Source: an uncultured Erysipelotrichaceae bacterium | GTDB lineage: Bacteria > Bacillota_I > Bacilli_A > RFN20 > CAG-826 | Assembly: GCA_902802905.1 (NCBI GenBank) | Contig: CADCNT010000002.1 | Span: 79,879-143,878 of the forward strand | Reading direction: 5' to 3' | Length of the DNA stretch: 64,000 nucleotides | Part shown: in pieces, positions 4,449 to 51,498 of the stretch | Layout: the number at the start of each line of letters is the position of its first letter | Position numbering within the stretch: the stretch's first letter is position 1 | Notes under the pieces: generated by a model | Told to the model about the DNA's origin: nothing | The model's input: only the letters and a program-made list of their open reading frames with translations | Database searches by the model: none | Made by a program: the position numbers and the translations under genes

Positions 4449-4464
4449 TTATCATCTTGATGAT

Positions 4465-16812: not shown

Positions 16813-19078
<2,266 letters not shown>

Positions 19079-19084
19079 AAACTA

Positions 19085-20602: not shown

Positions 20603-20613
20603 AAAATTACCTC

Positions 20614-21141: not shown

Positions 21142-21143
21142 AA

Positions 21144-21722: not shown

Positions 21723-21735
21723 AAGCTCCTCCTTA

Positions 21736-21951: not shown

Positions 21952-21954
21952 GTT

Positions 21955-22743: not shown

Positions 22744-22754
22744 TTCTTTTCCTT

Positions 22755-23141
22755 TCAATTATTTTTGTCTTTGATGTGTAGCATTGCGAACAAAATCACA
22801 TCAAGAGTATAAACGCCAACATAGGCGAATAAATTAAAAATTTTAATTTGCCAATAGTAATACAGCATTCCAAGTAAAACTATTGAGGAAATAGCAATCA
22901 CATTATGGATAATGATTGCGGTTATGGTAAATTTTGCACTTCCCTTTCTCGCATCTAGAACCACAAGTTCATGAGTGATGAAATGAAGAACAAACATCAT
23001 AGCTCCACCAAGCAAGATTCCTAGAGGAAGCTCCATATAATTGGTGAAGAAACAGTAGACAGTTGTAGCAAAGCCGATGATTGCAATAAACGCAATCAAG
23101 ATTGCGGCTTTGATGTGGATATCTACTTTTTTTAAAAACAT
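22755..23141 (-). CDS. atpI: ATP synthase protein I (AtpI-like small membrane protein)
   Basis: 128 aa, 4 hydrophobic segments, first gene of the atp operon. Confidence 0.6.
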   Translation of the reverse strand: MFLKKVDIHIKAAILIAFIAIIGFATTVYCFFTNYMELPLGILLGGAMMFVLHFITHELVVLDARKGSAKFTITAIIIHNVIAISSIVLLGMLYYYWQIKIFNLFAYVGVYTLDVILFAMLHIKDKNN

Positions 23142-24343: not shown

Positions 24344-24530
24344 GTTGTAGTACCTCTTAATTCTGTAATTTAACCGGTAATATTATGTTATATTATAAAA
24401 TAATATTCAATAAAAATCGGTCCCATCAAAACAACTTTCACACAAATACACGCATGTAAATATCTTTAATTGAATATAGACCTGAATTCATTTAAAATAG
24501 ATACGCAAATAATTTGTAAAGGAGAAACTT

Positions 24531-26171: not shown

Positions 26172-26195
26172 TATTTAAAAAGAAAGGGAAAATTT

Positions 26196-26618
26196 ATGAC
26201 TGCTGAAGAATTATTTAATGCTTATTTAAACGAATCTCAAGAAGATAGACTTAGAAGAGTTTCGGGTGCTGCTCAAGTCGTCTTTGGATTCCTAAAGCAA
26301 ACAGAGCTTTCTGAAGAAGAACAATTTGGTTTCTTTATTCATGTAATCGGAATGTTTGTTGCCGCTGACGGACAATTAACAAGAGGAGAATTAGAATTAT
26401 TCAATGCTTTATTTGATGCAAGCTATTCTCCACAACAAGTTGCTGAATTATTCGGCAATTGCGCAAGACCAGAAGTTGTTCAAGCTATGGATGAATTAAT
26501 CGATTCCATGCCAGAAGAAGCAAAACTTGCAACCTGCTCTGTCGGTTTAGCATTTGCAGCTGCTGATGGACAATTAACAGAACACGAAGTCAACCTCTTT
26601 GCAAAGATTCTTCAATAA
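26196..26618 (+). CDS. Small helical protein, TerB-like (weak call)
   Basis: 140 aa. Duplicated A(A)DGQLT-x-x-E-hydrophobic-x-LF motif. Confidence 0.4.
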   Translation: MTAEELFNAYLNESQEDRLRRVSGAAQVVFGFLKQTELSEEEQFGFFIHVIGMFVAADGQLTRGELELFNALFDASYSPQQVAELFGNCARPEVVQAMDELIDSMPEEAKLATCSVGLAFAAADGQLTEHEVNLFAKILQ

Positions 26619-26640
26619 TTGAATTTAGCAAAAATAAAAA

Positions 26641-26668
26641 GTAAGTAGCATAGCTACTTGCTTTTTTT
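26641..26668. terminator. Hairpin plus T-run between convergent genes
   Basis: GTAAGTAGC-ata-GCTACTTGC followed by T7. It overlaps the stop codon of the minus-strand ORF. Confidence 0.5.
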
Positions 26669-27772
26669 ATTCAAATTTTGTAATCGATTTAGTTCTCGTT
26701 TATGGATTGATATGAGCTGTGAGAAATAGAGCTTTTTCATATCGAGATATCTTCTTTTAGCATCATCAGATATGTTAGCGAAGAACAAGGATTGGAAGAC
26801 ATTTTCGATTCTGAAGAACGACTCATACAAATTCACAATAGTTAGCAAATGGAAATAAGTTTTATTGCTATAGATAAGCAATGGGGTTCCGTGAAGAATT
26901 TCACTACTAGTCATATAGATTTGACTATATTGATGAAGTCCCGCTAGAGTCTCCACTCCATCTCTAAAATTAAGTTTAAAGTTTTCAACTTTTTCATGTT
27001 CAGGAATAGCTAAAAGCCAGCCATATTCGATGAACTTTTTCATGTCTTTACTCTTTAAATCAATAGCTTTCATTTCCGCTTTTAATTGATTAAAGATTTT
27101 TTGATGATTTTCATCTTCACTTTCTCCAGACTTAAACACTAAACCATATTGCATATGTTTAATATAAGTTGGGATAACTTTTTCTTTATATTTATCTAAT
27201 AAGATAAGAACGCACTCACATTCATGAAGTGTTCTCCACATCGCAAAGGCTTCAGTTTCATATCCATCGCAAAGAAGTTTTAGAATACATCTCGCAATGG
27301 AAAGTGTTTTATTAAGTAAGTCAACTAGGATGGCATTTGTGCGATCTTTGAGCGGATAATTATTAACAACGTTAAGCATTAAATTAACATACAATTCCAT
27401 CGATGAGATTGGAGGAAGATATTTATTGGTGAGTTTTCTTTCATCGTGTAAATAAACGCCTAAAGAAATGATTTTATCAGCGATAACATTGCTCATTGAT
27501 TCTTTAAAAGAATCATTAGAGATAAATTTCTCAAGTTGTTCTTCTTTTAATCCACTTGTGGAATAGATATATTCACCTAATAAATAGAAGATAATTTCTT
27601 GGGAATTAACATCAAAAGAATAACCAACTTGTTTGCTTGATGAAATCTCTTCTAGACCATCAAAAACATTGGAATAGACATCGTAAAGATATTCATTTCT
27701 CACAATGACATTTGGTAAAGTAAAGTTTTTTACAATTTGGTTAAATTCTTCGATTGTTAGTTTTTGTCCCAT
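26654..27772 (-). CDS. Hypothetical protein, no family recognised
   Basis: 372-aa uninterrupted ORF, soluble, helical-looking. Confidence 0.5.
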   Translation of the reverse strand: MGQKLTIEEFNQIVKNFTLPNVIVRNEYLYDVYSNVFDGLEEISSSKQVGYSFDVNSQEIIFYLLGEYIYSTSGLKEEQLEKFISNDSFKESMSNVIADKIISLGVYLHDERKLTNKYLPPISSMELYVNLMLNVVNNYPLKDRTNAILVDLLNKTLSIARCILKLLCDGYETEAFAMWRTLHECECVLILLDKYKEKVIPTYIKHMQYGLVFKSGESEDENHQKIFNQLKAEMKAIDLKSKDMKKFIEYGWLLAIPEHEKVENFKLNFRDGVETLAGLHQYSQIYMTSSEILHGTPLLIYSNKTYFHLLTIVNLYESFFRIENVFQSLFFANISDDAKRRYLDMKKLYFSQLISIHKRELNRLQNLNKKSK

Positions 27773-27780
27773 TTCTACCT

Positions 27781-29256
27781 CTATTTAAATAATCTTGTAA
27801 CTTCTACAGCTTTCTTCCAGCCGTTATATCTTTCTAATACTTCGCTCTTATTCATTTTTGGTTCAAAAATAGCTTGTGAACGATGGATTTTCTTAATGTG
27901 ATCAAGATTCTTAAAGAATCCTGAAGATAAACCCGCTAAATAAGCAGCACCTAATGCTGTTGTTTGTAAGCATTCTGGTAAATCAATATTGGTTTGTAAG
28001 ATGTCGCTTTGGAATTGCATTAAGAATTTATTAGCGGTTGCTCCACCATCTACCTTCAAAGAAGGTATAGAAAGATTTGATTCTTTTTTCATCACTTCAA
28101 AGACATCTTTACATTGATAGGCAATCGACTCTAACGCTGCTCTTACAAAGTGACGATTGTCACTATTTCTAGTAAGACCAAATACTGCACCTCTAGCGTC
28201 ATCATCCCAATACGGCGTTCCTAAGCCCACAAAAGCCGGAACAATATAAACACCATGCGTGTCTCTACAATCTAAGGCTAATTTTTCACTATCCGCGGAA
28301 TGAACAATGAGTTTCATTTTGTCTCTAAGCCATTGCACTACCGCACCACCAATAAAAACACTGCCTTCTAAGGCATAGGTGACTTTACCACCAATTTGCC
28401 AAGCAACAGTGGTTAATAAACCAGTTTTACTAAGAGTAATATTTTCACCAATATTCATTAACATAAAGCATCCAGTGCCATATGTATTCTTCGATTCACC
28501 AACTTCAAAACAAGCTTGTCCAAATAACGCTGCTTGTTGGTCTCCAGCTACGCCATGGATATGCACTTTATCCGAGAAAAAAGAGGCTTTGCCATAATCA
28601 TATGAGCTAGGTAAAATCTTTGGCAGCATGGTCATTGGCACATTGAACAATTCGCACAACTCTTTATCCCAACTTAAACTTTCTAAGTTTAATAGCATAG
28701 TTCTACTTGCATTGGAGACATCGGTTGCGTGCACTGCTCCATTGGTCATACGATAAATAATCCAAGAATCAATTGTGCCAAAAAGAAGTTCTCCTCTTTT
28801 AGCTTTAGCTTCCGCTCCTGGAACATTTTCTAAAATAAATCTAATCTTACTGGCCGAGAAATATGGGTTTATTAATAAACCAGTTTTCTTTTGAATGAAG
28901 TCTTTTTTATTTTCGAAGCGATCACATATTTCTGCAGATTGACGTGATTGCCACACGATTGCAGGACAAATCGGCATTCCTGTCTTTTTATCCCAAATAA
29001 CTGTGGTTTCTCTTTGATTGGTAATACCAATAGAGTCAATATTCTTAAAAGTGATGTTTTCTTTAACCAAGATTTCATTAACTACGTTAATAACACTGAC
29101 CCAAATGTTAAGTGCGTCAGTTTCTACCCAACCAGAATGCGGAAAATTACAGACCACTTCTTCTTGAGTCATGTTCACCACTCTACCTTCTTTATCAACA
29201 AGAATGGCACGGGTGCTAGTTGTACCTTGATCAATTGTTAAAACATACTTTTCCAT
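27781..29256 (-). CDS. glpK: Glycerol kinase
   Basis: 491 aa. MEKYVLTIDQGTTSTRAIL and other FGGY kinase motifs. Confidence 0.95.
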   Translation of the reverse strand: MEKYVLTIDQGTTSTRAILVDKEGRVVNMTQEEVVCNFPHSGWVETDALNIWVSVINVVNEILVKENITFKNIDSIGITNQRETTVIWDKKTGMPICPAIVWQSRQSAEICDRFENKKDFIQKKTGLLINPYFSASKIRFILENVPGAEAKAKRGELLFGTIDSWIIYRMTNGAVHATDVSNASRTMLLNLESLSWDKELCELFNVPMTMLPKILPSSYDYGKASFFSDKVHIHGVAGDQQAALFGQACFEVGESKNTYGTGCFMLMNIGENITLSKTGLLTTVAWQIGGKVTYALEGSVFIGGAVVQWLRDKMKLIVHSADSEKLALDCRDTHGVYIVPAFVGLGTPYWDDDARGAVFGLTRNSDNRHFVRAALESIAYQCKDVFEVMKKESNLSIPSLKVDGGATANKFLMQFQSDILQTNIDLPECLQTTALGAAYLAGLSSGFFKNLDHIKKIHRSQAIFEPKMNKSEVLERYNGWKKAVEVTRLFK

Positions 29257-29259
29257 ATC

Positions 29260-30522
29260 TTACCTACGGTTCTTTAATAATCTTTCAATATCATCTGCTT
29301 CTTTTTTAATGCCTTTAGATAAGCAAATAGAGCCAGACTCAGTCACTAAAACATCATCTTCAATTCTGATGCCAATTTTTAAATCAGGGAAATAAAGTCC
29401 TGGTTCAACTGTAATTACATTACCAGGAGCAAGTTTGCGTTGGCGGTCACCAACATCATGAGTGTCTAAACCTAAGAAATGCGAAACATTATGGATAAAA
29501 TAAGTCACAATATCTTCTTCAGATTTGATGAGCTTTCTTTTTAAACATTCTCCACGTAATACATTTCTAGCGTATTCGTTTAAATCCATGATGGTTAAGC
29601 CAGGTTTGATATAGTCAATAACGGCTTTATTGCATTCTAAAACCGCTTCATAAATAGCGCGTTGTTTATCAGTAAATTGTCCAGAAACTGGATATGCTCT
29701 AGATATATCAGCGTTATACCCGTGATACCTATAACCTAAATCGAATTGGACAATATCATCAAATTCAATGATGCGGTCTTGTTGCGCGATTGGGTGGTGA
29801 AGAATAATTGTATTTTCTCCACTACCGATAATGGTTTCAAAGGCTAAATCTAATCTGCCATGTGTTTTGCCATAATATTCAAAGCGATCAGCAAGTTCGT
29901 GTTCGCTGATACCAATATGGAGATTATTGAGTAAATCATTAATGCCAATACTAGTATTGTTAATAGCCTCTACAAGTTCATTAATTTCCGCTTGGCTCTT
30001 AACTAAACGGAGTTCCACTACAAGTGGGTAGAGGTTTTTGAATTCTAAGTGAATGTATTTAGAAGAGAGTTCTTCTTTAAATAGTTGAGTTGATTTATTT
30101 TGGGCAATTTTGAGTTCATCGCTTAAATCAATAAATACGGTGTTGATTTGTCCATACATATTATTCTCGCGAGTTAACGCCATAGAGAGCATGGTGTCAA
30201 AATTGCTGTAGGCATAGACGTTTTCAATTTGGCTGATTTCACTGGCTTGTTCAAAAGTTAGTCTTCTACCAGTCCATCTTTCTTTTACTTCATCATATTC
30301 ATCAACGAAAAGATATTCTTTTCTTTCTCCAGGACACTTGATGAGCATGAGTACACTATTTTCTTGCTCAATACCTGTTAAATAAAAGAAATTACGATTA
30401 GCTAAAAATGGTAGATGGGCATCTTCACTAGCAATTTTAGAAACACCAGCGAAAACAAGTGCCACTGAATGATCTGGCAAGGATTCAAATAATTTTTCAC
30501 GACGAATGTTATATTCTTTCAT
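29260..30522 (-). CDS. Xaa-Pro aminopeptidase / M24B peptidase
   Basis: 420 aa. Pita-bread metal-ligand context FDLGYRYHGYNADISR, HNVSHFLGLDTHD, VEPGLY, IRIEDD. Confidence 0.8.
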   Translation of the reverse strand: MKEYNIRREKLFESLPDHSVALVFAGVSKIASEDAHLPFLANRNFFYLTGIEQENSVLMLIKCPGERKEYLFVDEYDEVKERWTGRRLTFEQASEISQIENVYAYSNFDTMLSMALTRENNMYGQINTVFIDLSDELKIAQNKSTQLFKEELSSKYIHLEFKNLYPLVVELRLVKSQAEINELVEAINNTSIGINDLLNNLHIGISEHELADRFEYYGKTHGRLDLAFETIIGSGENTIILHHPIAQQDRIIEFDDIVQFDLGYRYHGYNADISRAYPVSGQFTDKQRAIYEAVLECNKAVIDYIKPGLTIMDLNEYARNVLRGECLKRKLIKSEEDIVTYFIHNVSHFLGLDTHDVGDRQRKLAPGNVITVEPGLYFPDLKIGIRIEDDVLVTESGSICLSKGIKKEADDIERLLKNRR

Positions 30523-30523
30523 T

Positions 30524-31345
30524 TTAATCCTCCTTAATCACTTTATTAGTGATGCTTTCAAATTCTGGTAAGTCAATTAATTCAACTTGTCCTTTATCCA
30601 TCTTTGTGGCGTTTTCGCTAACAATTGGTAAAGTTCCTAAAACATCAAACTTGAGTTTGTCGGCAAACTCTTGTAAGTGTGATTCACCAAAGACAGAAAT
30701 CTTTTCATTACATTTTGGGCATTTAAGATAAGACATGTTCTCGATAACACCTAAAACATTAATATTCATCATTCTCGCCATCTTAATTGCTTTAGTAACA
30801 ACTAATGAAACTAAATCTTGAGGTGATGTAACGATGATCAAATCATCAATTGGAATCATTTGGAAGGTGGTAAGTGCGATGTCACCAGTTCCTGGTGGCA
30901 TATCGATCAATAAATAGTCCAAGTCTTCCCACAAAACATCTTCGTAGAATTGCTTAACCAAGTTACCTAATAAGACACCTCTCCATATAATTGGTTCAGA
31001 ATCATCTTCAAGTAAGCAGTTAGCGGAAATAATTTGAATTCCAGTTTTAGATTCAAGTGGATAGATAATTCCATCTTCTCCCATAGCCTTAGCTTTGATG
31101 CCAAAGGCTTTAGGAATACTTGGTCCGGTCACATCAGCATCTAAGATGCCAACACGATATCCTTTTCTTTTTAAAGAAACAGCTAAGTAAGAGGTGATAA
31201 ATGATTTACCAACTCCGCCTTTTCCAGATAAAACGGCCACCACTCTTTTAACTGAGGAGCGTTCGTTTAATTGTGCTTTTTTAATCTCTTTGTCACAGTT
31301 ACCACTAGATGGGCAGCTAGAACAATCATGAGTACAATCTGACAT
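30524..31345 (-). CDS. mrp: Mrp/ApbC/NBP35-family Fe-S cluster carrier ATPase
   Basis: SGKGGVGKS deviant Walker A, N-terminal CTHDCSSCPSSGNC, CPKC. Confidence 0.85.
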   Translation of the reverse strand: MSDCTHDCSSCPSSGNCDKEIKKAQLNERSSVKRVVAVLSGKGGVGKSFITSYLAVSLKRKGYRVGILDADVTGPSIPKAFGIKAKAMGEDGIIYPLESKTGIQIISANCLLEDDSEPIIWRGVLLGNLVKQFYEDVLWEDLDYLLIDMPPGTGDIALTTFQMIPIDDLIIVTSPQDLVSLVVTKAIKMARMMNINVLGVIENMSYLKCPKCNEKISVFGESHLQEFADKLKFDVLGTLPIVSENATKMDKGQVELIDLPEFESITNKVIKED

Positions 31346-33792: not shown

Positions 33793-35298
33793 TTATATAA
33801 TAACTCTCGCTGAAATGCACCTTGAGTTCGCTTTAGACAAAAATCCATACTTCGATTTAAGTGGTTCTTCATTAGAACCTTTTATTTTATAAATAATCTC
33901 GATTTTATCTTTATAGATAATTATCTTCTCAACGAATAAATCAATCATTCGTTTTAGGACATCTCTATCCTTGGTTTTAAGTGTCTCTCGGAAATACTTG
34001 AATGCATCCTTTAGTAGTTGTTTGTCTACTGGTTTGTTATCTTGTACTTCACAAGTGGCAAGTTCCATCTCGAGTCTAGAGATATCACCACTAATGGAGA
34101 TGTTTCTTTCATAATAGACATCCTTATCCAACTTTCCATCAAGATAGATATCCAATAGTCTATCTTTTTTATTTTTCAGTTTTCGAATCTCTTTTTCAAG
34201 TGATTCTCGTTTTGTCGGTTCTCCGCCACTTTTTTGTTTGTTTAGGTGAATTATCCATTCATCGACCATTTTGTCGGAAAAAAGGTCATTTGTAATTGAA
34301 AGAAAGATAATCTCTTCTAATCGGTCACGATTGATTGTGGATGGTTTCATATCACAAATGCCATGAGTGTGACCAGTACAACGGTATGCAAGGTAAACAC
34401 TATCTTTGTATGTGACTGAATGACCAGTATAGTGAGAACCACATTCACCACACCAAAGAACTCCAGTCAGTAAGAAGTCATTTTCCTTATGTCTCCTAAA
34501 GATTCTTTTCTTGGATTCGAGTTTGGAGTTGGCACTAATCCAGACATCATAAGAAACAATTGGATCACAAACATTATCGACAATAATTGGTTCATCACTC
34601 TTGGATGCATAAGTGTATGTTCCATAGTAGATTGTGTTACGAATAATCTTTTTAAGAGAGATGATTTCTAGGTTGGCACTTCGAGTTCCTTTAACTCCAC
34701 GATTCTTCAAGTCGGTACAAATAGCAGTTAAGGTATCTCCTTGGATGACACGAGAAAAAATCTCTTGGATAATTGGTGATTCATCTTGGTTAATAATAAA
34801 CTTGCCTTCTTCGTTGATGTCATATCCTAAAGGTCGAGTAGAACAAGACAAACCTTTTCTTGCTCGTGCATGTAAACCTTTTTTAGTTTCTCTTGATAAA
34901 TTAGATGAATAATACTCCGCCATACCTTCTAGAACTGATTCAAGGATGATGGTTTCTGGAGTGTCATCAAGTTTTTCCAAGACTGATATTACCTTGACTC
35001 CATTATCTTTAAGTATCTTCTTATAAAAGGCAAAGTCATATCTATTACGAGAGAATCTATCTAACTTATGAATAATGATAAAGTCGAATTGATGTTTTTC
35101 CGAATCTTTAATCATTCGTTGAAAGTTTTTTCTTTCATCAGTGGTTGCACTCTTGGCTTCATCGATGTATTCACCGACAAGTTCAAAATTCTCTTTGTTA
35201 CAAAATTCTTTGATGGCAAAGAGTTGTGCTTCTATCGAATATCCATCTCGTTGGTTTTCGGAAGAGAATCGGCAATAGGCAACTGCTCTCTTAATCAT
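33793..35298 (-). CDS. Large serine recombinase (phage integrase)
   Basis: 501 aa. N-terminal resolvase domain AVAYCRFSSENQRDGYSIEAQ, recombinase domain, zinc ribbon CGECGSHY...RCTGHTHGIC, then a coiled coil. Confidence 0.9.
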   Translation of the reverse strand: MIKRAVAYCRFSSENQRDGYSIEAQLFAIKEFCNKENFELVGEYIDEAKSATTDERKNFQRMIKDSEKHQFDFIIIHKLDRFSRNRYDFAFYKKILKDNGVKVISVLEKLDDTPETIILESVLEGMAEYYSSNLSRETKKGLHARARKGLSCSTRPLGYDINEEGKFIINQDESPIIQEIFSRVIQGDTLTAICTDLKNRGVKGTRSANLEIISLKKIIRNTIYYGTYTYASKSDEPIIVDNVCDPIVSYDVWISANSKLESKKRIFRRHKENDFLLTGVLWCGECGSHYTGHSVTYKDSVYLAYRCTGHTHGICDMKPSTINRDRLEEIIFLSITNDLFSDKMVDEWIIHLNKQKSGGEPTKRESLEKEIRKLKNKKDRLLDIYLDGKLDKDVYYERNISISGDISRLEMELATCEVQDNKPVDKQLLKDAFKYFRETLKTKDRDVLKRMIDLFVEKIIIYKDKIEIIYKIKGSNEEPLKSKYGFLSKANSRCISARVII

Positions 35299-35689
35299 TG
35301 TTTCTCTCCTTGTAAATGTTTGACATAAGAAGTGTTTTAGTCAAACCATCTTTATTCATACAAAGCAAGTTCTCAATTATGTTGAAGAGAAGAAGTTGTT
35401 CTTCATCAAGATAAGATGAATCAGTTTGTTTTTGGAGTTTCAAACGATTCGAATTACATAACAATACTAGAGACTCTTTGAAACCTCCATGAATATCAAT
35501 TAAATCTTCTCCTAATAACTCGGATGGATAACAATGAAGAGTGTTTGCCAAGATAATTGCAACTCTATAAGTCATCTTAACTCTATTCGTTTCTATGTGT
35601 GCAATTAAAGACCGTTCAATGCCACTTATATCAGCAAGTTCATATTGGGATAAATTATGTTCTTTACGGATTCTTTTAAGATTGTTCAT
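35291..35689 (-). CDS. XRE-family HTH repressor, paralogue A
   Basis: 132 aa. N-terminal HTH LSQYELADISGIERSLIAHIE. About 60% identical over the first 75 aa to the adjacent gene. Confidence 0.75.
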   Translation of the reverse strand: MNNLKRIRKEHNLSQYELADISGIERSLIAHIETNRVKMTYRVAIILANTLHCYPSELLGEDLIDIHGGFKESLVLLCNSNRLKLQKQTDSSYLDEEQLLLFNIIENLLCMNKDGLTKTLLMSNIYKERNND

Positions 35690-36084
35690 TGTTTCGTTTC
35701 CTTATCTAAATTATTTATTATTAGAACTACTTTCATTAGATTGTCATCATCAAGATTTAATAATCCGAGTATGGCATTATAAAGCATTTGTTCTCTCTTA
35801 TCGAAATTTCCACTTTGCAATTTTTGAATCATATCAACTGCATTAGAATCACATAATGCTCTTATCGATTCTTCAAATCCACCATGTATGGCAATTAAAT
35901 CTTCTCCAAGAATTTCGTTTGGGTAACAATGAAAAAAGTTTGCCAAGATAATTGCAACTCGATAAGTCATCTTTGCAGTGCCAAGTTCGAGTTGAGCAAT
36001 CAACGAACGAGATATTTTTGTTTTATTAGCTAGTTCTCTCTGGGATAATCCAGAACGAGTTCTAATTTCCTTCAAATTATTCAT
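35686..36084 (-). CDS. XRE-family HTH repressor, paralogue B (CI-like position)
   Basis: MNNLKEIRTRSGLSQRELANKTKISRSLIAQLE. ATG 36084 with an AAAGGAAAA RBS (track start 36156 rejected). ATGA overlap with paralogue A. Confidence 0.75.
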   Translation of the reverse strand: MNNLKEIRTRSGLSQRELANKTKISRSLIAQLELGTAKMTYRVAIILANFFHCYPNEILGEDLIAIHGGFEESIRALCDSNAVDMIQKLQSGNFDKREQMLYNAILGLLNLDDDNLMKVVLIINNLDKETKQ

Positions 36085-36110
36085 AATTTCCGATTTTCCT
36101 TTGCACAAAT

Positions 36111-36176
36111 ATAATAACAACTTGGTTAATTTTTTGCAACAAAGTGGTTGACACATTTTATTATCTTTGGTTTAAT
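36111..36176. promoter_or_regulatory. Divergent back-to-back promoters of the lysis/lysogeny switch
   Basis: Leftward: TTGCAA (36139-36134), 17 nt, TATTAT (36116-36111). Rightward: TTGACA (36148-36153), 17 nt, TTTAAT (36171-36176). Confidence 0.5.
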
Positions 36177-37377: not shown

Positions 37378-37917
37378 ATGGGAAAAAAGTTAGAACGAAA
37401 TGCAGTGGGTTTAACCACTCGACAAGCAAGAACTCACGATTTAATAGTCAAGAATAGTGAGTTAGGGAGAAAAACTCCAATTGATGAAATCATCGATAAT
37501 TATCCATACGATGCCGAAACTCGTAGAGATGGATATATCAAAAACACAAGTGCCAGAACACACCATCCTTGTATTCAAGTCTATGAAGATATTGATGCAT
37601 TAAATATGAATCTAGGAATCCATAAAGTGCATCTATGGGATAAAGAATACAACTTCTGGATTTCTCACGATATAGAGGAAGTTAAGGCATTTTGTAAACC
37701 ACTTTATGAGAGACAAGGCAAGAAGAAACTTTGGAAACAAGGAATCCTAATGTTAAAAGCAAGGAGACATGGACAAATGAGATTAAAGTTTGAATCCGAA
37801 TCCGAAGCTAGAGAGTATTGGGAGACATTCATTGATTCCATTAAGGGTGAATTAGTCGATGAACTTATAAAGGAAGGAGAATCGGAAGATGGCAAAGAGA
37901 AGGATGTTCTCAACTGA
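37378..37917 (+). CDS. Hypothetical phage protein
   Basis: ORF track 37333..37917. ATG 37378 is preferred because the shared 19-nt RBS-containing element precedes it. Confidence 0.5.
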   Translation: MGKKLERNAVGLTTRQARTHDLIVKNSELGRKTPIDEIIDNYPYDAETRRDGYIKNTSARTHHPCIQVYEDIDALNMNLGIHKVHLWDKEYNFWISHDIEEVKAFCKPLYERQGKKKLWKQGILMLKARRHGQMRLKFESESEAREYWETFIDSIKGELVDELIKEGESEDGKEKDVLN

Positions 37918-38782
37918 AATAGTTAGAAGTGATGCATTCTTGGACTTACCAGTTAGTAGTAGAGAATTATATTTCCAACTTGGAATGGACACTGATGATA
38001 GAGGATATATTCCAAATGCCAAATCAATCATTCGTGTCATAGGTGCAAACATAGGTGATTTAGAACCACTTATCAATAAAGGATTCTTGATGTTAAGAGG
38101 TGAAACACTGATGTTACAAAAACACTTTAGGATCAATAACACAATTAGGTCGGATAGATTCAAAGAAACTGAATACATCGATGACTTAAAGAAGTTATTT
38201 ATCAAAAGTAACGGTGTCTACACTGATGACTCAACCAAGGGAAAACCTACTCCATTGGTGCTTGGTATACCAAGTGGATACCAAATGGATACCAATGGGT
38301 TACCCCAATTAAATATAAGTAAAGATAATTTAATTAAAGATAATTCAAGTAAAGAAATAGATATAACTAGATATAACGAGATAAAAGCAAATGGATTTGC
38401 CGGAGAGTTGTTCTTGAAATTAGTCGATTCTGGTTATGTCTCGTTATATGAACTCGACACTAACGATTATATAAAGTTCCTTAAAGAACTATTAAGTCAA
38501 TATGAAGTAGTCGATATCAAGATTAAAGTCGAATACTTCTTGAGAGTAACTTGTCACTATCTACCAATCGGTAAAGACAAACAAGACAAACCTATATTCG
38601 GTTATAGGTACAAAGAAGAGAATCAAATTGGTAATAAGTTTCTTTACTTCAAAACCACTATTACTAATGCATTCAATCCTAAAGAGTATCTAACTGAACA
38701 AGAGCAGCTAGAACTCCAAAAGATAATGGATGAACTTGGTCAAGAAGATACTGACACCGATGATGACTCACTTCCATTCTAA
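37889..38782 (+). CDS. Phage replisome organizer / replication initiator
   Basis: The N-terminus MAKRRMFSTEIVRSDAFLDLPVSSRELYFQLGMDTDDRGYI is typical of the replisome-organizer N-terminal domain. Acidic C-terminus. Confidence 0.7.
   Translation: MAKRRMFSTEIVRSDAFLDLPVSSRELYFQLGMDTDDRGYIPNAKSIIRVIGANIGDLEPLINKGFLMLRGETLMLQKHFRINNTIRSDRFKETEYIDDLKKLFIKSNGVYTDDSTKGKPTPLVLGIPSGYQMDTNGLPQLNISKDNLIKDNSSKEIDITRYNEIKANGFAGELFLKLVDSGYVSLYELDTNDYIKFLKELLSQYEVVDIKIKVEYFLRVTCHYLPIGKDKQDKPIFGYRYKEENQIGNKFLYFKTTITNAFNPKEYLTEQEQLELQKIMDELGQEDTDTDDDSLPF
38320..38377. repeat. AT-rich direct-repeat cluster inside the replisome-organizer gene (candidate phage ori)
   Basis: TAAAGATAATT at 38320 and 38335. Perfect tandem TAGATATAAC x2 at 38358-38377. 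Confidence 0.4.
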
Positions 38783-38784
38783 TT

Positions 38785-39318
38785 ATGGGTAGAAGAAGGA
38801 AGAAAAGAAGAACTCTTCGGACAACTGAAGAGATACCAAAGGAAATAGCAACACCTCCACATAGACTCACATTTGAAACTGACTCAAAGCTAATTAAAGT
38901 CACTGCCAACATTAGAGATTGCTTAAGAACTAGAAGTATTAGGTCTTGTCTCAAATGTTGTAGGTGGCACGAGTGTAAGACTAGATTGGAGGGGATTAAG
39001 GTGGATGAGATTATCTTGAAAGTATCTTGGCAAGATTTTAAGAAGATTGAACGAGATGAAATTCGAGAGATTAGATCACTCACCAATCTAGCTACATTTC
39101 CACTACTGATATACCTCTATGTAGAACCTCCTTATTACGAAAGAGATAAGAAAGGTGAAATCAAAGGTGTCATCGAAGTAGTCAAAGATAAAACAACGAA
39201 TCAATGGAAGATAGACATGTTCTGGTATCCATTGATATCAGTGATTCCATACTTCATGAGATATGCCGCCAAGGATTGGACTTGGAGTTGGATATCACGA
39301 GAAAACAACAAAAAATAA
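38785..39318 (+). CDS. Hypothetical phage protein (basic N-terminus, Cys-rich segment)
   Basis: This is the only open frame here. 177 aa. CLRTRSIRSCLKCCRWHEC. Confidence 0.4.
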   Translation: MGRRRKKRRTLRTTEEIPKEIATPPHRLTFETDSKLIKVTANIRDCLRTRSIRSCLKCCRWHECKTRLEGIKVDEIILKVSWQDFKKIERDEIREIRSLTNLATFPLLIYLYVEPPYYERDKKGEIKGVIEVVKDKTTNQWKIDMFWYPLISVIPYFMRYAAKDWTWSWISRENNKK

Positions 39319-39322
39319 AGTT

Positions 39323-39341
39323 CCTACCACGAACGAAAGGA
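39323..39341 (+). repeat. 19-nt element CCTACCACGAACGAAAGGA, copy 2 (5' UTR of the C5-MTase gene)
   Basis: Identical to 37349-37367. It ends 6 nt before ATG 39348. Confidence 0.8.
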
Positions 39342-39347
39342 GAATTT

Positions 39348-40763
39348 ATGAGAGATGATGATTTTTGTCAGTTAAACCTCTTTAATTCGTTTAGAGATTA
39401 TAAGAAGTTTGATTCTAACAAGAAATTATTGGTGGTTGAATTCTTCTCCGGGATTGGTGCTACTGCACAAGGATTAAAGAATCTCGGAATCAAATTCACT
39501 CATCATCGAACATGTGAATGGTGTTCAGTAAGTATCAAAGCATACAACATGATTCACATGAAAGACACTACTGATTACTCCAAAGATTTGACCAAGGATC
39601 AACTAATTGCATACCTTGATGGGAATATCTCAACTGATTGGAACACATTATGCAATGTCAAAAAGCAAAATGAGAAATGGTTGAGAGAGACATATAACAA
39701 TTGCATTGCCACTCATAACATGATGAATATCTCGAATGTTCATGGAGAAGATTTGGGAATTCCTTATTCCGATGATTATGAAACATTTTGTTCTTACTCA
39801 TTTCCATGCCAAGACTTGTCTCTTGCTGGAAAGATGAAAGGAATGGAAGAAGGTTCTGGAACACGAAGTTCACTACTCTTTGAGTTCTTACGAATATTAA
39901 GAGAAATAGATGAACTCTATAAACAAGGTAAAAGTGGAAGAATCACTTATCTCTTGATGGAGAATGTACCAGAAGTCATTGGTTCAAAAAATGTGAAGCA
40001 ATTCGTTAAGTTTGAAGAAGAACTAACGAAACTCGGATATACAAATTTTGGTGGAATCTTGAATGGCAAGAATTACTGCATACCACAAAACCGTAGGAGA
40101 TTCTTCTTATTCTCGATTCTTGGTGATTATTCATATGACTTTCCTAAAAGAAGAGAACTGAAATATCACCTTAAGGACTTTTTAGAAGATGAAGTTGATG
40201 AAAAATACTACTTGTCACAAAGAATGATTAACTTCTTCATGTCCAACACCGAGAAACAAGCCGAGAGCGGCAATGGGATTAAAAGCAAATCCATTGCCGC
40301 TACTGATGAAGGTTCGATTGCTCGAACCATTACCACTAAAGCTGGTAGTCGAATGGATGATAACTTCATTATCTACGAAGATGAAGAAGATGACTCCGAA
40401 GAAGTGACAACTCATCAAGACTTAAAAGAAACTCTTGAGGGGGGGGTTATTGAAGAAGGAGACTTTGTCGACACATACAATCGAACGATTAAGAAAGATG
40501 GATGCAGTGGCACTATCACAACTAGGATCAGTGAATGCAATCATCAATATGTAGTTGTGAAAGGCAAAACTATCAAAATCAAGAATGCCACAAAAAAAGG
40601 GTATATCGAAGCTGAAGTCGGTGATGCAATCGATATCTCTGGAAGAATGCAATATCACCGAGGAACGGTTCAAAAAGGAATCAGCCAAACAATCACTACA
40701 ATGGGCGGAGATAATGTTGCAGTGGTTGTAGAAGATAAAGGAGACAACGATGAAGAAAAATGA
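39348..40763 (+). CDS. DNA (cytosine-5) methyltransferase, large ORF: motifs I-VIII plus three TRD-like units
   Basis: FFSGIGA (I), SFPCQDLS (IV), MENV (VI), QNRRRFF (VIII). Then ARTITTK, SGTITTR and SQTITTMGG units. The start is set at 39348, not 39204. Confidence 0.85.
   Translation: MRDDDFCQLNLFNSFRDYKKFDSNKKLLVVEFFSGIGATAQGLKNLGIKFTHHRTCEWCSVSIKAYNMIHMKDTTDYSKDLTKDQLIAYLDGNISTDWNTLCNVKKQNEKWLRETYNNCIATHNMMNISNVHGEDLGIPYSDDYETFCSYSFPCQDLSLAGKMKGMEEGSGTRSSLLFEFLRILREIDELYKQGKSGRITYLLMENVPEVIGSKNVKQFVKFEEELTKLGYTNFGGILNGKNYCIPQNRRRFFLFSILGDYSYDFPKRRELKYHLKDFLEDEVDEKYYLSQRMINFFMSNTEKQAESGNGIKSKSIAATDEGSIARTITTKAGSRMDDNFIIYEDEEDDSEEVTTHQDLKETLEGGVIEEGDFVDTYNRTIKKDGCSGTITTRISECNHQYVVVKGKTIKIKNATKKGYIEAEVGDAIDISGRMQYHRGTVQKGISQTITTMGGDNVAVVVEDKGDNDEEK
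40439..40446 (+). repeat. G8 homopolymer inside the C5-MTase large ORF (in frame, encodes part of EGGV)
   Basis: gaGGGGGGGGtt, read directly. This is the longest G run seen in the window. Confidence 0.95.
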
Positions 40764-41151
40764 GTATGTTGGAGTGTTCGACATTAAAGAATCCGATACA
40801 TTTCGACCAACACTTGAATCAAGAATCCATTTAGACTCACCAGTCTCCAAGACATTAACTTGTCGAGAGGATAGCTGCGGTGTCATCGAGAGAGAGAGAG
40901 AGAGTAGACTCCGAATCCGAAAACTCACTCCGAGAGAATGTTTCCGCCTTATGGGTTTCGATGATGACTCATTTAATTCTCTTGAAGGTCAATTCTCAAA
41001 CAACAATCTCTATCATCTTGCCGGAGACTCAATCATCAGTGTTGTTATCTCATACATATGTCTAGGTCTTATGGAAGATGAAAAAGAAGCTGAAAGCAAA
41101 ATTCAAAAATATGTCGATACATTAAAGGAGGACAAAGATGGAAACAAATAA
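40750..41151 (+). CDS. DNA (cytosine-5) methyltransferase, small ORF: fourth TRD-like unit plus motifs IX-X
   Basis: SKTLTCRED, RKLTPRECFRLMGFDD (IX), AGDSI (X). It has its own AAAGGAG RBS 7 nt upstream and overlaps the large ORF by 14 nt. Confidence 0.8.
   Translation: MKKNEYVGVFDIKESDTFRPTLESRIHLDSPVSKTLTCREDSCGVIERERESRLRIRKLTPRECFRLMGFDDDSFNSLEGQFSNNNLYHLAGDSIISVVISYICLGLMEDEKEAESKIQKYVDTLKEDKDGNK
40888..40904 (+). repeat. (GA)8 tract inside the C5-MTase small ORF (in frame, encodes ERERE)
   Basis: GAGAGAGAGAGAGAGAG, read directly. It lies about 15 nt upstream of motif IX. Confidence 0.95.
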
Positions 41152-41876
41152 GATTTACTTCGGTGATGCATATGAACTCATTAAGGAAATCCCGGATAAA
41201 TCAATCGACTTAATTTATACTGATCCACCTTATGACTTCCATAGTGGAACTGCAGTATCTGGTGGAATCTTCAAAGATAGAGAATGCAAACCATATCAAG
41301 ATGTGGTTGATGCCAAATTAAATGCTGGAATAGACAACTCAATCTTGGATGAATTTGTAAGAATACTAAAGCATATATATATATATATGGTGCAACAAGT
41401 CTCAAATTCCGTTCTATCTAAATTACTTCTTGTCTTATCCAAATATAAGTTTCGAGATTCTAACATGGCACAAGAAAAATCCATCACCAATTACAAAAAA
41501 CACATTCTTACCAGATACCGAATACTGCCTTATGTTTCGAGAAAAGGGTGTGTGCCTATTAAATGATGGATATGAATTAAAACATAAGTATTACATCTCA
41601 AGTACCAACAAAGATGACAAAGATGATTACTTGCATCCGACAATCAAACCAATTGAATTTGTCGAAAAGCACATTGCTCATTCTACTCAAGTCGGTGATA
41701 TCGTATTTGATCCATTCTTGGGTAGTGGCACTACTGCACTTGCAGCTAAACATCTTGGAAGAAAATATATCGGATTTGAAATCAATGAGACTTATTACAA
41801 AATCGCGGTTGACCGTTTACAAGGAATCAATCAAAAAGGAGAGATGAATCTCTTCGACATAATGGGAGATGAATGA
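41138..41876 (+). pseudogene. Beta-class DPPY (N6-adenine-type) DNA methyltransferase, frame-shifted at an (AT)8 tract (phase-OFF allele)
   Basis: Frame 1 carries IYTDPPYDF up to the tract. From the tract on, the +1 frame reads IYIWCNKSQ...ILTWHKKNP...HPTIKP...FDPFLGSGTTALAA. (AT)9 would give one 246-aa ORF. Confidence 0.85.
41373..41388 (+). repeat. (AT)8 tract at the frameshift point of the DPPY methyltransferase
   Basis: gcATATATATATATATATgg, read directly. Confidence 0.95.
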
Positions 41877-42040: not shown

Positions 42041-42260
42041 ACAACAATTACTCGGAAGAGTCATCGATGGATATTGGGAAATCGTTAAAGCAATTAAGAC
42101 TGGAAATTCCCGAAACTACAATTACATTCTCCGAAACCAATATAACGGAACTGAAGTTCAAGTTGGTGGTACAACGGTTAGATCAATCATTAAAGGAGAA
42201 ACTAGTGTCTCCAAAATCGTATCAAGAAGAATCAAAAAAGGAGAAAGAAGAAATGGATAA
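42030..42260 (+). CDS. Hypothetical small phage protein
   Basis: 76 aa with a GGAGAAAAAA RBS before the ATG. Confidence 0.45.
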   Translation: MANRQQLLGRVIDGYWEIVKAIKTGNSRNYNYILRNQYNGTEVQVGGTTVRSIIKGETSVSKIVSRRIKKGERRNG

Positions 42261-43156
42261 TGAATTACTACTCTTCGATAGATTAGAAATCATTAAAACC
42301 ACTATCAATAAATATGGAATAGATAATTTCTACTTATCGTTCTCTGGTGGTAAAGATTCCACTATTCTCCATCACTTGATAGATATGGCACTTCCGGGAA
42401 ATAGAATTCCAAGAGTGTTTGTAAACACTGGAATCGAATACAACATGATTGTTCAGTTTGTTAAGGATATGGCAGCTAAAGATGACCGATTCGTAATCAT
42501 TGCACCAAGTAAACCAATTAAAAAGGTGTTAGAAGAATTCGGTTATCCGTTCAAATCCAAAGAACACTCACTACGAGTTTACCAATTCAACAAAGGTCAA
42601 AACTCGAATTACATCAAGAAATACATATCTGGTTATGACCATAATGGCAAAGAATCGACATTTGTATGTCCAAAGATTCTCAAGTATCAGTTTGAGGAAA
42701 GAGGTAAATACAACTACTCAAATCTATGTTGCCAAAAACTGAAGAAAGAACCAGTTCATAAATGGGAGAAGGAAAACCATAAGTCCATTGCGATGACTGG
42801 TATGAGAGCGGAGGAAGGTGGCAATCGAGCAAGACTCGGATGCATCATCACCGACTCTAAAGGAAGATTGAAGAGATTCCATCCACTCATCAAAGTCGAT
42901 GAACAATGGGAAGATTGGTTATTAGAGAGAGAGAGAGAGAATAGCACTCGCACCACTCTATTGCCAACCATTCAACTTCAAAAGGACCGGATGTAAAGGA
43001 TGCCCGTTCAGTCTTGAACTCCAAGAACAACTTGACATCATGCAAATCTATCTCCCGGCTGAACGAAAACAATGTGAATTCATTTGGGAGTATGTCTACA
43101 AGGAATATCGAAGAATCGGATATCGATTGAAAGACAAAATCACTATTTGGGATTAA
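42253..43156 (+). pseudogene. PAPS/APS-reductase-like PP-loop protein (DndC-like fold), frame-shifted at a (GA)8 tract (phase-OFF allele)
   Basis: SFSGGKDS PP-loop and LCCQKLKKEPV in frame 0. After the tract the +1 frame reads IALAPLYCQPFNFKRTGCKGCPF... through to a stop at 43154-43156. The start is set at ATG 42253 (AAAGGAGAAAG RBS). Confidence 0.8.
42924..42940 (+). repeat. (AG)8A / (GA)8 tract at the frameshift point of the PAPS-reductase-like gene
   Basis: ttAGAGAGAGAGAGAGAGAat, read directly. Confidence 0.95.
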
Positions 43157-45957: not shown

Positions 45958-46689
45958 ATGTCTAGTCTTACAAAGAAAGTAAAAACTGAAAGATACACCA
46001 CTAAAGTCAATGGAAGAGTCATGAAGAATGACCGACCAAAGAACACTCACATTCCTACTTATCCAATCAAGGATGAAAAGGATATCAAAAAAATCTATCG
46101 ATACCTTGAACTCCAAATTGCCTATTCCAAATCGACATTTGAAGAATTCATTGCTTATCGAAACTACATGCTCTTTATGTTAGGGATCAACACTGCGTTA
46201 AGAGCGGAAGATTTACTCCAACTCAAAGTTAAAGGTGTTATCAAAGGTCGAATTGATACAACTGAAAACAAAACCAAGAAAGACCAACACTTTATGCTTA
46301 ATAAGAAGTTGTTCGAGGAAATCAAAAAATACATCGATAAATTTGACTTGAGATTAGATGATTATCTATTTGCAAGTCGAAAGTCTGGTGATGATGGATT
46401 CACAAAACCAATTACTAGACAAGCATCTCACAAGATAATGAAAACCATTGCCGAAGTTGTTGGGATCAACTACTCATTCGGTCTCCACTCCTTGAGAAAG
46501 ACATTTGGTTACCATTACATAAAAAGGAATCTCAATTCAGCGGATGCTTGGTTGACTTTATCAAAGATGTATAACCACTCATCTCCGGCAACTACAATGA
46601 TGTACATTTGTTGGGATGATAAAGATTACAAGGCAAGAGAAGAATTCTTCCTTGATAATGAATCCGCTATTAAAAGGAGAAAAAAATGA
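45958..46689 (+). CDS. Tyrosine recombinase (phage-integrase/Xer family), internal to the prophage
   Basis: 243 aa. ALRAEDLLQLK (box I Arg), HSLRKTFGYHY (HxxR), NHSSPATTMMYI (His...catalytic Tyr). Confidence 0.8.
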   Translation: MSSLTKKVKTERYTTKVNGRVMKNDRPKNTHIPTYPIKDEKDIKKIYRYLELQIAYSKSTFEEFIAYRNYMLFMLGINTALRAEDLLQLKVKGVIKGRIDTTENKTKKDQHFMLNKKLFEEIKKYIDKFDLRLDDYLFASRKSGDDGFTKPITRQASHKIMKTIAEVVGINYSFGLHSLRKTFGYHYIKRNLNSADAWLTLSKMYNHSSPATTMMYICWDDKDYKAREEFFLDNESAIKRRKK

Positions 46690-49315: not shown

Positions 49316-49825
49316 ATGGCTGGGAGAAAACCGAAAGTCACTGGAAGTGGTCATCGTACCAAAAAGGAAAAGTCGGCTTATAAAGAGATGACTGAATCTC
49401 TCCGTACTCCAAGCACTATGCCTTGTCCGAAATGGTTGACCAAACAAGGTCAACAAATCTTCCGTAAGTTGAAGAAGCAGTATAACGAGATGCCCGGCAA
49501 TCCGTTATGTAATCTTGATATCACTCCATTGGCGGTTCTTGCTAATGCGATGGATATATATATTGAAGCTCATAAGGAGTTTGTAGAAGGTGGATCACAT
49601 CTAACCGTAATACAAATTTCAAAGGGCAGTGAAAAAGAGGTCATCAATCCACTTGTTAAAACAATGAATGAACAAGCTGCGATTGTAGCCAAGTTGTCCG
49701 ACCAACTATGTCTCACTCCAATCGGTAGAATGAGAATGGGTGTCAATGCATCAAAAACACCGAAAGATGAATTCTTGGATATCTTCAATGATCCAGATGA
49801 AAACGAAGATGTGGATGATGGCTAA
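49316..49825 (+). CDS. Terminase small subunit (P27 family)
   Basis: MAGRKPKVTG... N-terminus and LCLTPIGRMRMG C-terminal motif, typical of the P27 family. Confidence 0.8.
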   Translation: MAGRKPKVTGSGHRTKKEKSAYKEMTESLRTPSTMPCPKWLTKQGQQIFRKLKKQYNEMPGNPLCNLDITPLAVLANAMDIYIEAHKEFVEGGSHLTVIQISKGSEKEVINPLVKTMNEQAAIVAKLSDQLCLTPIGRMRMGVNASKTPKDEFLDIFNDPDENEDVDDG

Positions 49826-51498
49826 TGAACTATGTCTCTCAATACATTGATGCAATTGAGTCTGGAACAATAGTTGTTGGAAAACGAATTAAGCAGTTCT
49901 ACTGCGGAATCATCAAACCAATTATCAATGGGTTAGATGATAAATATTACTTCGATGAAAGACCGGGAAACCGATTCATCAAGTTTGCCGAAACCTTGTG
50001 TAGACAAAGCAAAGGCAAGTGGAGAGGTCAAACTCTCAAACTGATGCTATTTCAAAAGGCAAAATACCAATGTCTTTTTGGAATAAAACATAGAGATACC
50101 AAACTCCGTAGATTCACTGAAGTGTTCGATTTAAGAGGTCGAAAAAATGGTAAGTCGGAAGAGAATGCAGTTCTTGGTTTGTATCTCCTTGCTGAAGAAG
50201 CTGGTGCTGAAGTGTATGCCGCTGCAAACACTCTCAAACAAGCACGAAGAATCTTCGAAGAAGCGAGGTCGATGATTAACAAAGATAAGTATCTCCAAAA
50301 ACACTATTCCGCTAGATCATTTCCAAACGAGGAAATTCTTCTAAAGGAACGAGACTCTTATTTTAGAGTCTTATCTTCAAATCTAGATGCTTTAGATGGT
50401 TTGAACTGCTCATTCGGTGTTATCGATGAAATTCATGCCGGAAGTTCGAGAGATATCTACGATTTGTTAAAACAAGCTACATCAGTTCGTGATGAACCGT
50501 TAATCAGTTTAATCACTACTGCTGGAGATAAAAGAGGTGGTTTATTCGATGATGAATACGAACTCTCCATCAAAATTCTCGAAGGAACAATCGAGGGTTG
50601 TGAATGGTTAATGCCATTACTCTATGAACTCGATGACAAAAACGAGATTGACAATGAATCTTGTTGGATCAAAGCGAATCCAACACTCGGAACAATCAAA
50701 TCGTTCAAATTCATTCGAGATGAACTTGAGAGAGCAAAAGGAGACCAGAATGCACTCCGCTCTATCAAGATTAAAGACTTTAACTTAATCGAATCATCCG
50801 CGGTTGCATGGTTGTCTGGTGAAACTATTGCCAATCACCATGTTTACACTGATGAAGAATTAAGAAAGTTCGACAATTCCGTAGTCATTGGTGGATATGA
50901 CTTATCTAGAACAAATGACTGCACCGCATTCACCACATTAGTCTTTGACAAAGAAAACCAAAGAATAATCGCATTGACCAAATATTGGATCACTGAAGAA
51001 TTCCTTGATTCTCCAGAAGCAAAGGCAAGTAAAGTTCCTTGGAAAGCATGGATAGATAGAGGTTTGGTTTCTATCTCCGGGAAGAATCTTATAGACTACC
51101 GAGATATTGCCAAATATGTCTACGATATGTTCCAAGAACACGGATGGTATTATTACCGAATCAATTACGATGCTTATTCAGCGGCATATCTTGTTCAAGA
51201 ACTTGCATCGTATGGATTCCAAGAAGGTAGTTGCCAAATCAAGACTCAACAAGGGTTTAAGACTCTCTCAATTCCAATGCGAGAAATGGAATCGCTTCTT
51301 AAATCTAAAATGTTGTGTTATCAAAACAATCCAGTTACTGCTTGGATGTTCTCCAATGTAGAACTCGTTAAAGATAGAAACGATAACTGGATGCCAAGAA
51401 AAGCTGGAGATAAACGAGCAAATAAAATCGATGGTCCAGCCACTATCTTAAATGCCTTGGTCTCATTTTGTGAGTCTAAAGCATATTACTTATCGTAA
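49825..51498 (+). CDS. Terminase large subunit
   Basis: 557 aa. ATPase region (GRKNGKSE, GVIDEIHA) and a C-terminal nuclease region. Confidence 0.9.
   Translation: MNYVSQYIDAIESGTIVVGKRIKQFYCGIIKPIINGLDDKYYFDERPGNRFIKFAETLCRQSKGKWRGQTLKLMLFQKAKYQCLFGIKHRDTKLRRFTEVFDLRGRKNGKSEENAVLGLYLLAEEAGAEVYAAANTLKQARRIFEEARSMINKDKYLQKHYSARSFPNEEILLKERDSYFRVLSSNLDALDGLNCSFGVIDEIHAGSSRDIYDLLKQATSVRDEPLISLITTAGDKRGGLFDDEYELSIKILEGTIEGCEWLMPLLYELDDKNEIDNESCWIKANPTLGTIKSFKFIRDELERAKGDQNALRSIKIKDFNLIESSAVAWLSGETIANHHVYTDEELRKFDNSVVIGGYDLSRTNDCTAFTTLVFDKENQRIIALTKYWITEEFLDSPEAKASKVPWKAWIDRGLVSISGKNLIDYRDIAKYVYDMFQEHGWYYYRINYDAYSAAYLVQELASYGFQEGSCQIKTQQGFKTLSIPMREMESLLKSKMLCYQNNPVTAWMFSNVELVKDRNDNWMPRKAGDKRANKIDGPATILNALVSFCESKAYYLS

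Follow-up and report, generated by a model that had tools for sequence, protein, structure and literature searches.

The stretch of DNA analysed here, a window of 64 kb from contig CADCNT010000002.1 of an uncultured Erysipelotrichaceae bacterium, contains in its prophage part a complete gene for a beta-class N6_N4 DNA methyltransferase that is cut into two intact halves by a run of eight AT units. Comparison with related phages makes it very probable that this is a phase-variable orphan methyltransferase of a temperate siphovirus-like prophage, probably directed at N6-adenine and gated by a hypermutable (AT)n tract inside its open reading frame (ORF), and that the window holds the phase-OFF allele (AT)8. 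Simple sequence repeats (SSRs) change their length by slipped-strand mispairing during replication, and tracts within genes can thereby switch expression reversibly ON and OFF. A first-pass annotation of the same DNA had taken the methyltransferase alone; the gene is one of three adjacent prophage modification genes that are switched by SSRs.

The tract (ATATATATATATATAT, (AT)8) occupies positions 41373-41388 on the plus strand of a window with a GC content of 35%. The N-terminal ORF (41138-41566, plus strand, 142 amino acids (aa)) starts with the ATG at 41138 and reads METNK...IYTDPPYDF...LKHIYIYM, with motif IV (DPPY) encoded at 41222-41233; it passes across the tract and ends out of frame at the TAA 41564-41566. 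The C-terminal reading frame (41370-41876, plus strand) is shifted by +1 relative to the N-terminal ORF. It follows a TAA at 41367-41369, reads SIYIYIWCNK...HPTIKP...FDPFLGSGTT, with motif I (DPFLGSGTT) at 41709-41735, and stops at 41874-41876. Insertion of one AT unit fuses the two halves to a protein of 246 aa, in which the tract encodes the core beta-strand I-Y-I-Y-I of the segment KHIYIYIWCNK. The first-pass annotation had described the frames, stops and motifs correctly. It had also proposed that either (AT)9 or (AT)6 restores a 246-aa protein, which proved right for (AT)9 and wrong for (AT)6. The (AT)6 version has 244 aa and loses two residues (Y-I) of a core strand whose length is fixed in 16 of 16 aligned homologues, which makes it structurally doubtful. 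No allele with (AT)6 was seen among the 12 tract-carrying DNA loci and about 22 protein alleles, and (AT)12 was not seen either.

Only three dinucleotide repeats of at least six units occur in the whole window, and each of them has exactly eight units: (GA)8, (AT)8 and (AG)8. All three lie inside 2.05 kb, each in a DNA-modification gene. Repeats of at least six units appeared at a mean of 0.03 per shuffle in 300 dinucleotide-preserving shuffles of the window. Because none of these shuffles contained a repeat of at least seven units, against the three observed, the tracts are not products of chance.

The length of the AT tract differs between closely related phages. Clustering at 90% identity places the 142-aa fragment in a group of 22 proteins, whose C-terminal tails reveal the tract length: ...IYIYMVQQ corresponds to (AT)8, ...IYIYIYMVQQ to (AT)11, ...IYIYGATSLKFRSI to (AT)7, ...IYIYIYGATS to (AT)10 and ...IYIYIYIYGATS to (AT)13. 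Near-identical phage contigs thus carry 7, 8, 9, 10, 11 or 13 units, all of which except nine leave the gene OFF. Within the 9-member ON cluster, all seven full-length proteins that span the tract (P0001, P0152, P0153 and P0155-P0158) contain IYIYIW, which corresponds to (AT)9. At the DNA level (AT)8 was found in three more samples (L044-L046), (AT)9 in L001-L003 and (AT)10 in L048 and L070.

The comparison with L070 is the most direct one. Aligned with window positions 39829-61498 over 21,676 nt, this contig shows 0 mismatches and 3 gaps with a total of 8 nt, and these gaps are the tracts alone: (GA)7, (AT)10 and (AG)9 instead of 8, 8 and 8 units. A second contig (L071) has 0 mismatches to the window over 20,128 nt; its single gap, of 2 nt, falls in the (AG) tract. 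Gap counts also agree with the differences in tract length in L044 and L046, and in relatives with at least 99.6% identity the three tracts, which vary independently of each other, explain all indels. Three other repeats served as controls: G8 (40439), G7 (49085) and (AT)5 (49554) are constant in length in 11 of 11 loci, even at 90% nucleotide identity. Since the differences on identical backgrounds are restricted to the tracts and the control repeats are invariant, the three tracts mutate orders of magnitude faster than the remaining genome, a pattern that cannot be put down to general assembly noise.

The sequencing run ERR3201422 contains the host contig of the window (L073, identical to window positions 17707-30838, 0 mismatches over 13,132 nt). 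The phage contig L071 from the same run starts at the first base of the AT tract (41373) and has (AG)9, compared with (AG)8 in the window. Should this sample be the source of the window's assembly, this would be a hint that both (AG) lengths coexist there. Other contigs start at or close to repeats as well, L062 at the G8 run (window position 40439) and L064 11 nt upstream of the (AG) tract. The contig breaks and the mismatch in (AG) length in ERR3201422 suggest heterogeneity of tract length within one sample.

The protein repaired to (AT)9 matches the Pfam family PF01555 (N6_N4_Mtase) in a single stretch from profile position 1 to 220 of 221 (E=1.6e-30, 107 bits with a cut-off of 26.7). The order of the motifs is permuted, with the catalytic motif IV DPPY (residues 29-32) before DPFLGSGTT (residues 192-200), the SAM-binding motif I of the form FxGxG, and both are invariant in alignment A1. 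Motif order together with the complete coverage of PF01555 supports a beta-class amino-methyltransferase, the class that had already been deduced from the order of motifs IV and I, and the beta-class relatives of known structure agree with it. The best of these are the N6-adenine enzymes M1.HpyAVI (5hek) and CcrM (6pbd); N4-cytosine enzymes (8s9m, 1boo) match too. From the DPPY motif and the best structural relatives N6-adenine is likely to be the target rather than N4-cytosine. M1.HpyAVI (5hek/5hfj) and CcrM share the fold family and the motif order with the protein described here (E=5e-20 over residues 5-229), and their core strand 'cmvIFC' aligns with the tract-encoded IYIYIW. They differ in that the sequence similarity is only distant and that their genes have no repeat. 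As no nuclease match was found among the neighbouring genes in Pfam and PHROGs, the gene does not fall into a restriction-modification system, and we classify the predicted enzyme as an orphan methyltransferase of the phage anti-restriction type.

A search with the repaired protein yielded 4,697 homologues at E<=1e-10 with end-to-end alignment, 120 of which were listed. The closest homologues among the matches listed are full length, namely P0001 (99% identity, 247 aa), P0002 (87%), P0003 (85%) and P0004 (73%), and all of them contain KHIYIYIWCNK; a gene that is always split in the same way, which was one possible outcome of this search, was thus not found. Remoter relatives have K(H/K)(I/V)NI(F/Y)(I/L)WCNK at this place with unchanged length. 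The first-pass annotation had recommended looking for the tract in homologues, and an uninterrupted (AT)9 is indeed present in the DNA of the lineages with 99%, 85% and 73% aa identity. The 87% lineage (L004, L047, L051), which has no C5 methyltransferase gene, encodes the same peptide by ATA TAT ATC TAC ATA, that is, by a broken tract, and therefore the repeat is not needed for the function of the protein. The wider family uses mixed codons at the tract positions (ATA/ATT/ATC, TAT/TAC, AAT/AAC) and has no long tract, with one exception: a 52%-identical homologue in an uncultured Firmicutes metagenome-assembled genome (MAG; L027) reads KKIYIYIWCNK and contains an in-frame (AT)8 at about 4459-4474. 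This AT tract apparently arose independently at the same position.

Among cultured phages the best protein match of the methyltransferase reaches 45% identity. A homologue with 45% identity from the cultured Enterococcus phage 156 (L074, LR031359.1; Herelleviridae) is annotated as two coding sequences, and the break is an A8 run at 820-830, at the same site as the AT tract. The gene of phage AE4_2 (L075) is 94% identical to that of phage 156, has A7 and is intact. A scan of genome contigs revealed no close relative; the best match was an uncultured Bacilli MAG with 69%. In four related loci (L060, L061, L065 and L068; for example L060 1845-2375) the N6_N4 gene is swapped for a gene for a 176-aa protein of a different methyltransferase family (phrog_799), and the flanking C5 and PAPS-reductase-like genes retain their repeats.

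An obvious alternative to phase variation is a plain pseudogene, in which a single slippage event inactivated a methyltransferase that is no longer needed and the tract drifts without selected switching. OFF alleles are indeed frequent (six of nine close DNA alleles), two OFF contigs carry the exchange F134C at an invariant residue, and the four loci just mentioned replaced the gene altogether. A decaying gene would be expected to show further damage, but 0 second lesions were found in either half of the OFF alleles: with the tract set to (AT)9, every one of them (window, L044, L045, L046 and L048) is an uninterrupted ORF of 246 aa. For the window compared with the ON allele L001, the ratio of nonsynonymous to synonymous substitution rates (dN/dS) is about 0.05 overall and 0.04 for the downstream half, and compared with more distant ON homologues it is 0.03-0.16 for each half. 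ON alleles exist on very close backgrounds, OFF alleles occupy both wrong frames, and a like pattern is present in three adjacent genes. The tract also stays perfect across lineages with saturated synonymous divergence. For L005 and L007 (dS>=1.8) only 54-57% of the codons for the same amino acid are identical, yet six of six tract codons are, with a probability of about 0.03 per lineage for the identity of all six. This argues, though modestly, for conservation of the repeat itself across these lineages. Decay is thus improbable, and the allele series, the tract-only differences of L070, the absence of further lesions and the low dN/dS bear out the earlier preference for phase variation.

It is also conceivable that an error of sequencing or assembly turned a real (AT)9 into (AT)8. 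Dinucleotide repeats are error-prone in libraries based on PCR, and some contigs end at the tracts, as described above for L071 and L062. Nevertheless, the contigs L044, L045 and L046, which come from at least three other independent samples and assemblers, code for precisely the same 142-aa OFF product, lengths between 7 and 13 units recur across ENA, Logan and IMG/VR data, and the shorter control repeats are invariant. A change of two units, from 8 to 10, is moreover atypical of consensus errors, so that an artefact is hardly credible. Recoding during translation would have a different consequence: a -2/+1 slip of the ribosome on (AU)8 would yield the full-length protein from (AT)8, and the gene would not be OFF at all. 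On theoretical grounds tRNAs could re-pair perfectly after a slip of 2 nt, and the shift needed here (+1/-2) is exactly that slip. Recoding as the norm would, however, fix the genomic length, and because the relatives occupy all three frames it is unnecessary as an explanation; among the full-length versions the in-frame (AT)9 is the most frequent. A stimulatory element was not found, though no search was aimed at one. The other two tracts, with different repeat units, behave alike. We regard recoding as highly unlikely.

Phase variation of the methyltransferase remains the reading that we favour, and several observations weigh against it. The loci were retrieved by look-ups of exact proteins, so that the allele counts are biased. 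The lineage of L004, L047 and L051 has an interrupted AT tract and no (AG) tract, and the repeats are thus not universally kept. In L044 and L045, both OFF with (AT)8, the exchange F134C affects a residue that is invariant in an alignment of 16 sequences and may be a first step in the decay of a silent allele. ON alleles are no more frequent than OFF alleles, a frequency that neutral slippage would also produce. This frequency is compatible with fast neutral slippage combined with intermittent selection for function, the expected signature of a contingency locus, and is no direct proof of selected switching; it is the intact halves and the low dN/dS that argue for selection of the ON state. 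Finally, we infer switching within a clone, its rate and its reversibility from differences between assemblies.

The gene upstream of the methyltransferase encodes a C5 cytosine methyltransferase in two ORFs. The alpha ORF (39204-40763, plus strand, 519 aa) contains an in-frame G8 run at 40439-40446. The beta ORF (40750-41151, plus strand, 133 aa) comprises a segment with a TLTC motif resembling a target recognition domain (TRD) as well as motifs IX-X, and has its own Shine-Dalgarno sequence, AAGGAG, 7 nt upstream of the ATG. The (GA)8 repeat (40888-40903, plus strand) is located between the TRD-like TLTC...GVIE segment and motif IX (RIRKLTPRE). In the window the beta ORF is in frame through this repeat (...TLTCREDSCGVIERERESRLRIRKLTPRECFRLMGF) and is therefore ON. 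Relatives have 6, 7, 8, 9, 10 or 11 units; 8 and 11 units leave the ORF intact (133 or 135 aa), and 6, 7, 9 and 10 units break it. Several T(I/L)T(T/C) motifs resembling TRDs are present in the alpha ORF, which suggests that it is multispecific.

The alpha and beta ORFs are split in the same manner in relatives with as little as 77% nucleotide identity, and also in the rearranged L005 locus with its different junction. The split is not a lesion; a C5 methyltransferase in two ORFs is, as we take it, a natural two-polypeptide enzyme reminiscent of M.AquI. Recoding of TGA as tryptophan was considered for this split and rejected, since read-through of the TGA at 40761-40763 hits a TAA a few codons further on and the beta ORF has a conserved Shine-Dalgarno sequence and ATG. 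Slippage on an A5 run was rejected because the split is conserved where the junction sequences differ. The G8 run at 40439-40446 was considered as a fourth switch and rejected, as it is invariant in 11 loci. In L005 a different C5 gene has G8 and (AG)8 at the equivalent places, and its beta ORF is OFF.

The PAPS-reductase-like gene (42253-43156, plus strand) is OFF in the window and consists of frame A (42253-42996) and frame B (about 42922-43156). Its (AG)8 repeat lies at 42924-42939 on the plus strand, and relatives have 6, 8, 9, 10 or 12 units. Nine units give a protein of 301 aa, which is called in L061, L062, L067 and L071; (AG)6 (299 aa) and (AG)12 (a longer product) are in frame as well, and (AG)8 and (AG)10 are OFF. 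The SSR-free lineage has EKIETEKGKH in place of (RE)n in this protein, and the repeat is accordingly assigned, by alignment, to a variable linker. A variable linker would account for the tolerance of several in-frame (AG) lengths, compared with the single one in the core strand of the methyltransferase. In the order C5, N6 and PAPS-reductase-like, the resulting combinations are ON/OFF/OFF for the window, OFF/OFF/ON for L070, OFF/OFF/OFF for L044 and ON/-/ON for L061.

Positions 1 to 33.5 kb of the window contain ordinary chromosomal genes (PriA, ATP synthase, FGGY kinase, aminopeptidase P), and the prophage extends from 33.8 kb onward. Its left end (33793-36156, minus strand) consists of a large serine recombinase (33793-35298) and two genes of the helix-turn-helix repressor type (35291-36156). 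All following genes are on the plus strand, in the order DnaD-like loader (37889-38782), modification module, small tyrosine recombinase, HNH, TerS/TerL (49825-51498), portal, protease, capsid and tail. The tyrosine recombinase (45958-46689, 243 aa) lies in the middle of the early region and is present in addition to the large serine recombinase. The module comprises the alpha and beta ORFs of the C5 enzyme, the N6_N4 methyltransferase, two small ORFs (55 aa and 76 aa) and the PAPS-reductase-like gene. Since the genes of the module overlap or abut and neither a dedicated promoter nor a terminator for the methyltransferase gave a signal above shuffled controls, the module is probably co-transcribed with the early and replication genes. 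The early-operon position and the lack of a promoter signal above shuffles also make the activity of the methyltransferase in the lysogen uncertain, and we do not class it as a phasevarion. The relatives are contigs of 34-38 kb from ruminant-gut metagenomes. No match to the region 38.7-43.6 kb turned up in a megablast search of 50,697 phage records, and at the protein level no close cultured phage was found (best match 37% for TerL, 45% for the methyltransferase as stated above). The window contains no tRNA.

These data lead us to the following model. Replication slippage would add or remove AT units, and the methyltransferase frame would be open at (AT)9 only. By the same device, dinucleotide tracts of 16-20 bp would switch the C5 beta subunit and the PAPS-reductase-like gene independently, so that a phage population could be a mixture of up to eight modification states. 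Because of the early-operon position and the lack of a partner nuclease, phage DNA during lytic growth is most likely the main substrate of the modification enzymes. The mixture could then hedge between hosts in which methylation protects against restriction and hosts in which methylated DNA is the target of modification-dependent (Type IV) systems; in addition or instead, switching may limit the cost of the methylases to the lysogen. We infer the adaptive role, bet-hedging against restriction systems, from this arrangement. Only tentatively do we extend the model to a combinatorial module of three switches (C5, N6 and PAPS-reductase-like modification), with up to eight phasotypes among the virions and lysogens of a phage of ruminant-gut Bacillota, that is selected for bet-hedging. 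If this were true, it would be a natural multi-locus contingency system in a phage, and the PAPS-reductase-like protein would itself be a DNA-modification or anti-defence enzyme.

Phase variation of methyltransferases by SSRs is textbook knowledge for host-adapted bacterial pathogens. In phasevarions, SSRs switch Type III mod and also Type I hsd genes in Haemophilus, Neisseria, Helicobacter and Moraxella (review PMC13076061). The ON/OFF switching of a DNA methyltransferase by slipped strands is shared with our system. Phasevarions, however, involve a Type III Mod with a Res partner, usually have tetra- or pentanucleotide repeats or homopolymers near the 5' end and regulate sets of host genes, whereas the prophage gene has no restriction partner. 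Orphan Type II CpG methyltransferases of Mycoplasma vary in phase by poly(G) or poly(GA) tracts in the middle of the gene (PMC9465063). They resemble the present case as orphan enzymes with a homopolymer or dinucleotide tract in mid-ORF just upstream of a conserved domain, and the C5 gene of the prophage likewise has G8 and (GA)n. In contrast to these chromosomal C5 enzymes of Mollicutes, the methyltransferase analysed here is an N6_N4 beta-class enzyme of a prophage, and its (AT)n codes for a strand of the catalytic core.

Examples from phages and prophages are closer in setting. The orphan m6A methyltransferase M.Btr192IV of a Bibersteinia trehalosi prophage, which is similar to M.HindVII, contains a (CAAG)12 repeat, the significance of which its authors call unclear (PMC4996451). 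Both are prophage adenine methyltransferases (probably so in our case) with an SSR within the coding sequence. M.Btr192IV belongs to another enzyme family, has its tetranucleotide repeat close to the 5' end and comes with no allele series, whereas length polymorphism and ON and OFF alleles are documented here. Contingency loci in phages were first claimed in a 2025 preprint, for short homopolymers in laboratory coliphages (bioRxiv 10.1101/2025.10.21.683753). In phage T2 the A9 tract of agt is such a locus, which trades restriction by TgvAB against restriction by McrBC, with mutant frequencies of about 7e-4 (Gomez, Barrick and Waters, bioRxiv 10.1101/2025.10.21.683753). There, too, an SSR in a DNA-modification gene of a phage causes reversible frameshifts, and different restriction systems of the host favour the ON or the OFF state. 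The T2 example differs in being a homopolymer in a glucosyltransferase gene of a lytic T-even phage, measured by experiment. Here, dinucleotide tracts of 16-20 bp are located in two methyltransferase genes and a PAPS-reductase-like gene of a temperate phage, and the evidence is a natural allele series.

The mechanism, a contingency locus based on slipped strands, is therefore known; the setting is unusual, with three independently varying long dinucleotide switches in one modification module of a temperate phage. In an uncultured temperate phage, the occurrence of ON and OFF alleles on otherwise identical genomes is a natural example of such variation at the population level. 'Frameshifted pseudogenes' of this type deserve to be retained, and where contigs break at such tracts, the break carries biological information. 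Their co-switching with methyltransferases marks the widespread PAPS-reductase-like genes of phages as candidate genes for DNA modification or anti-defence. If the switches are adaptive, these phages would diversify their own epigenetic coat stochastically, which would bear on annotation, on the prediction of host ranges from metagenomes and on the ways in which phages withstand restriction-modification combined with Type IV defences.

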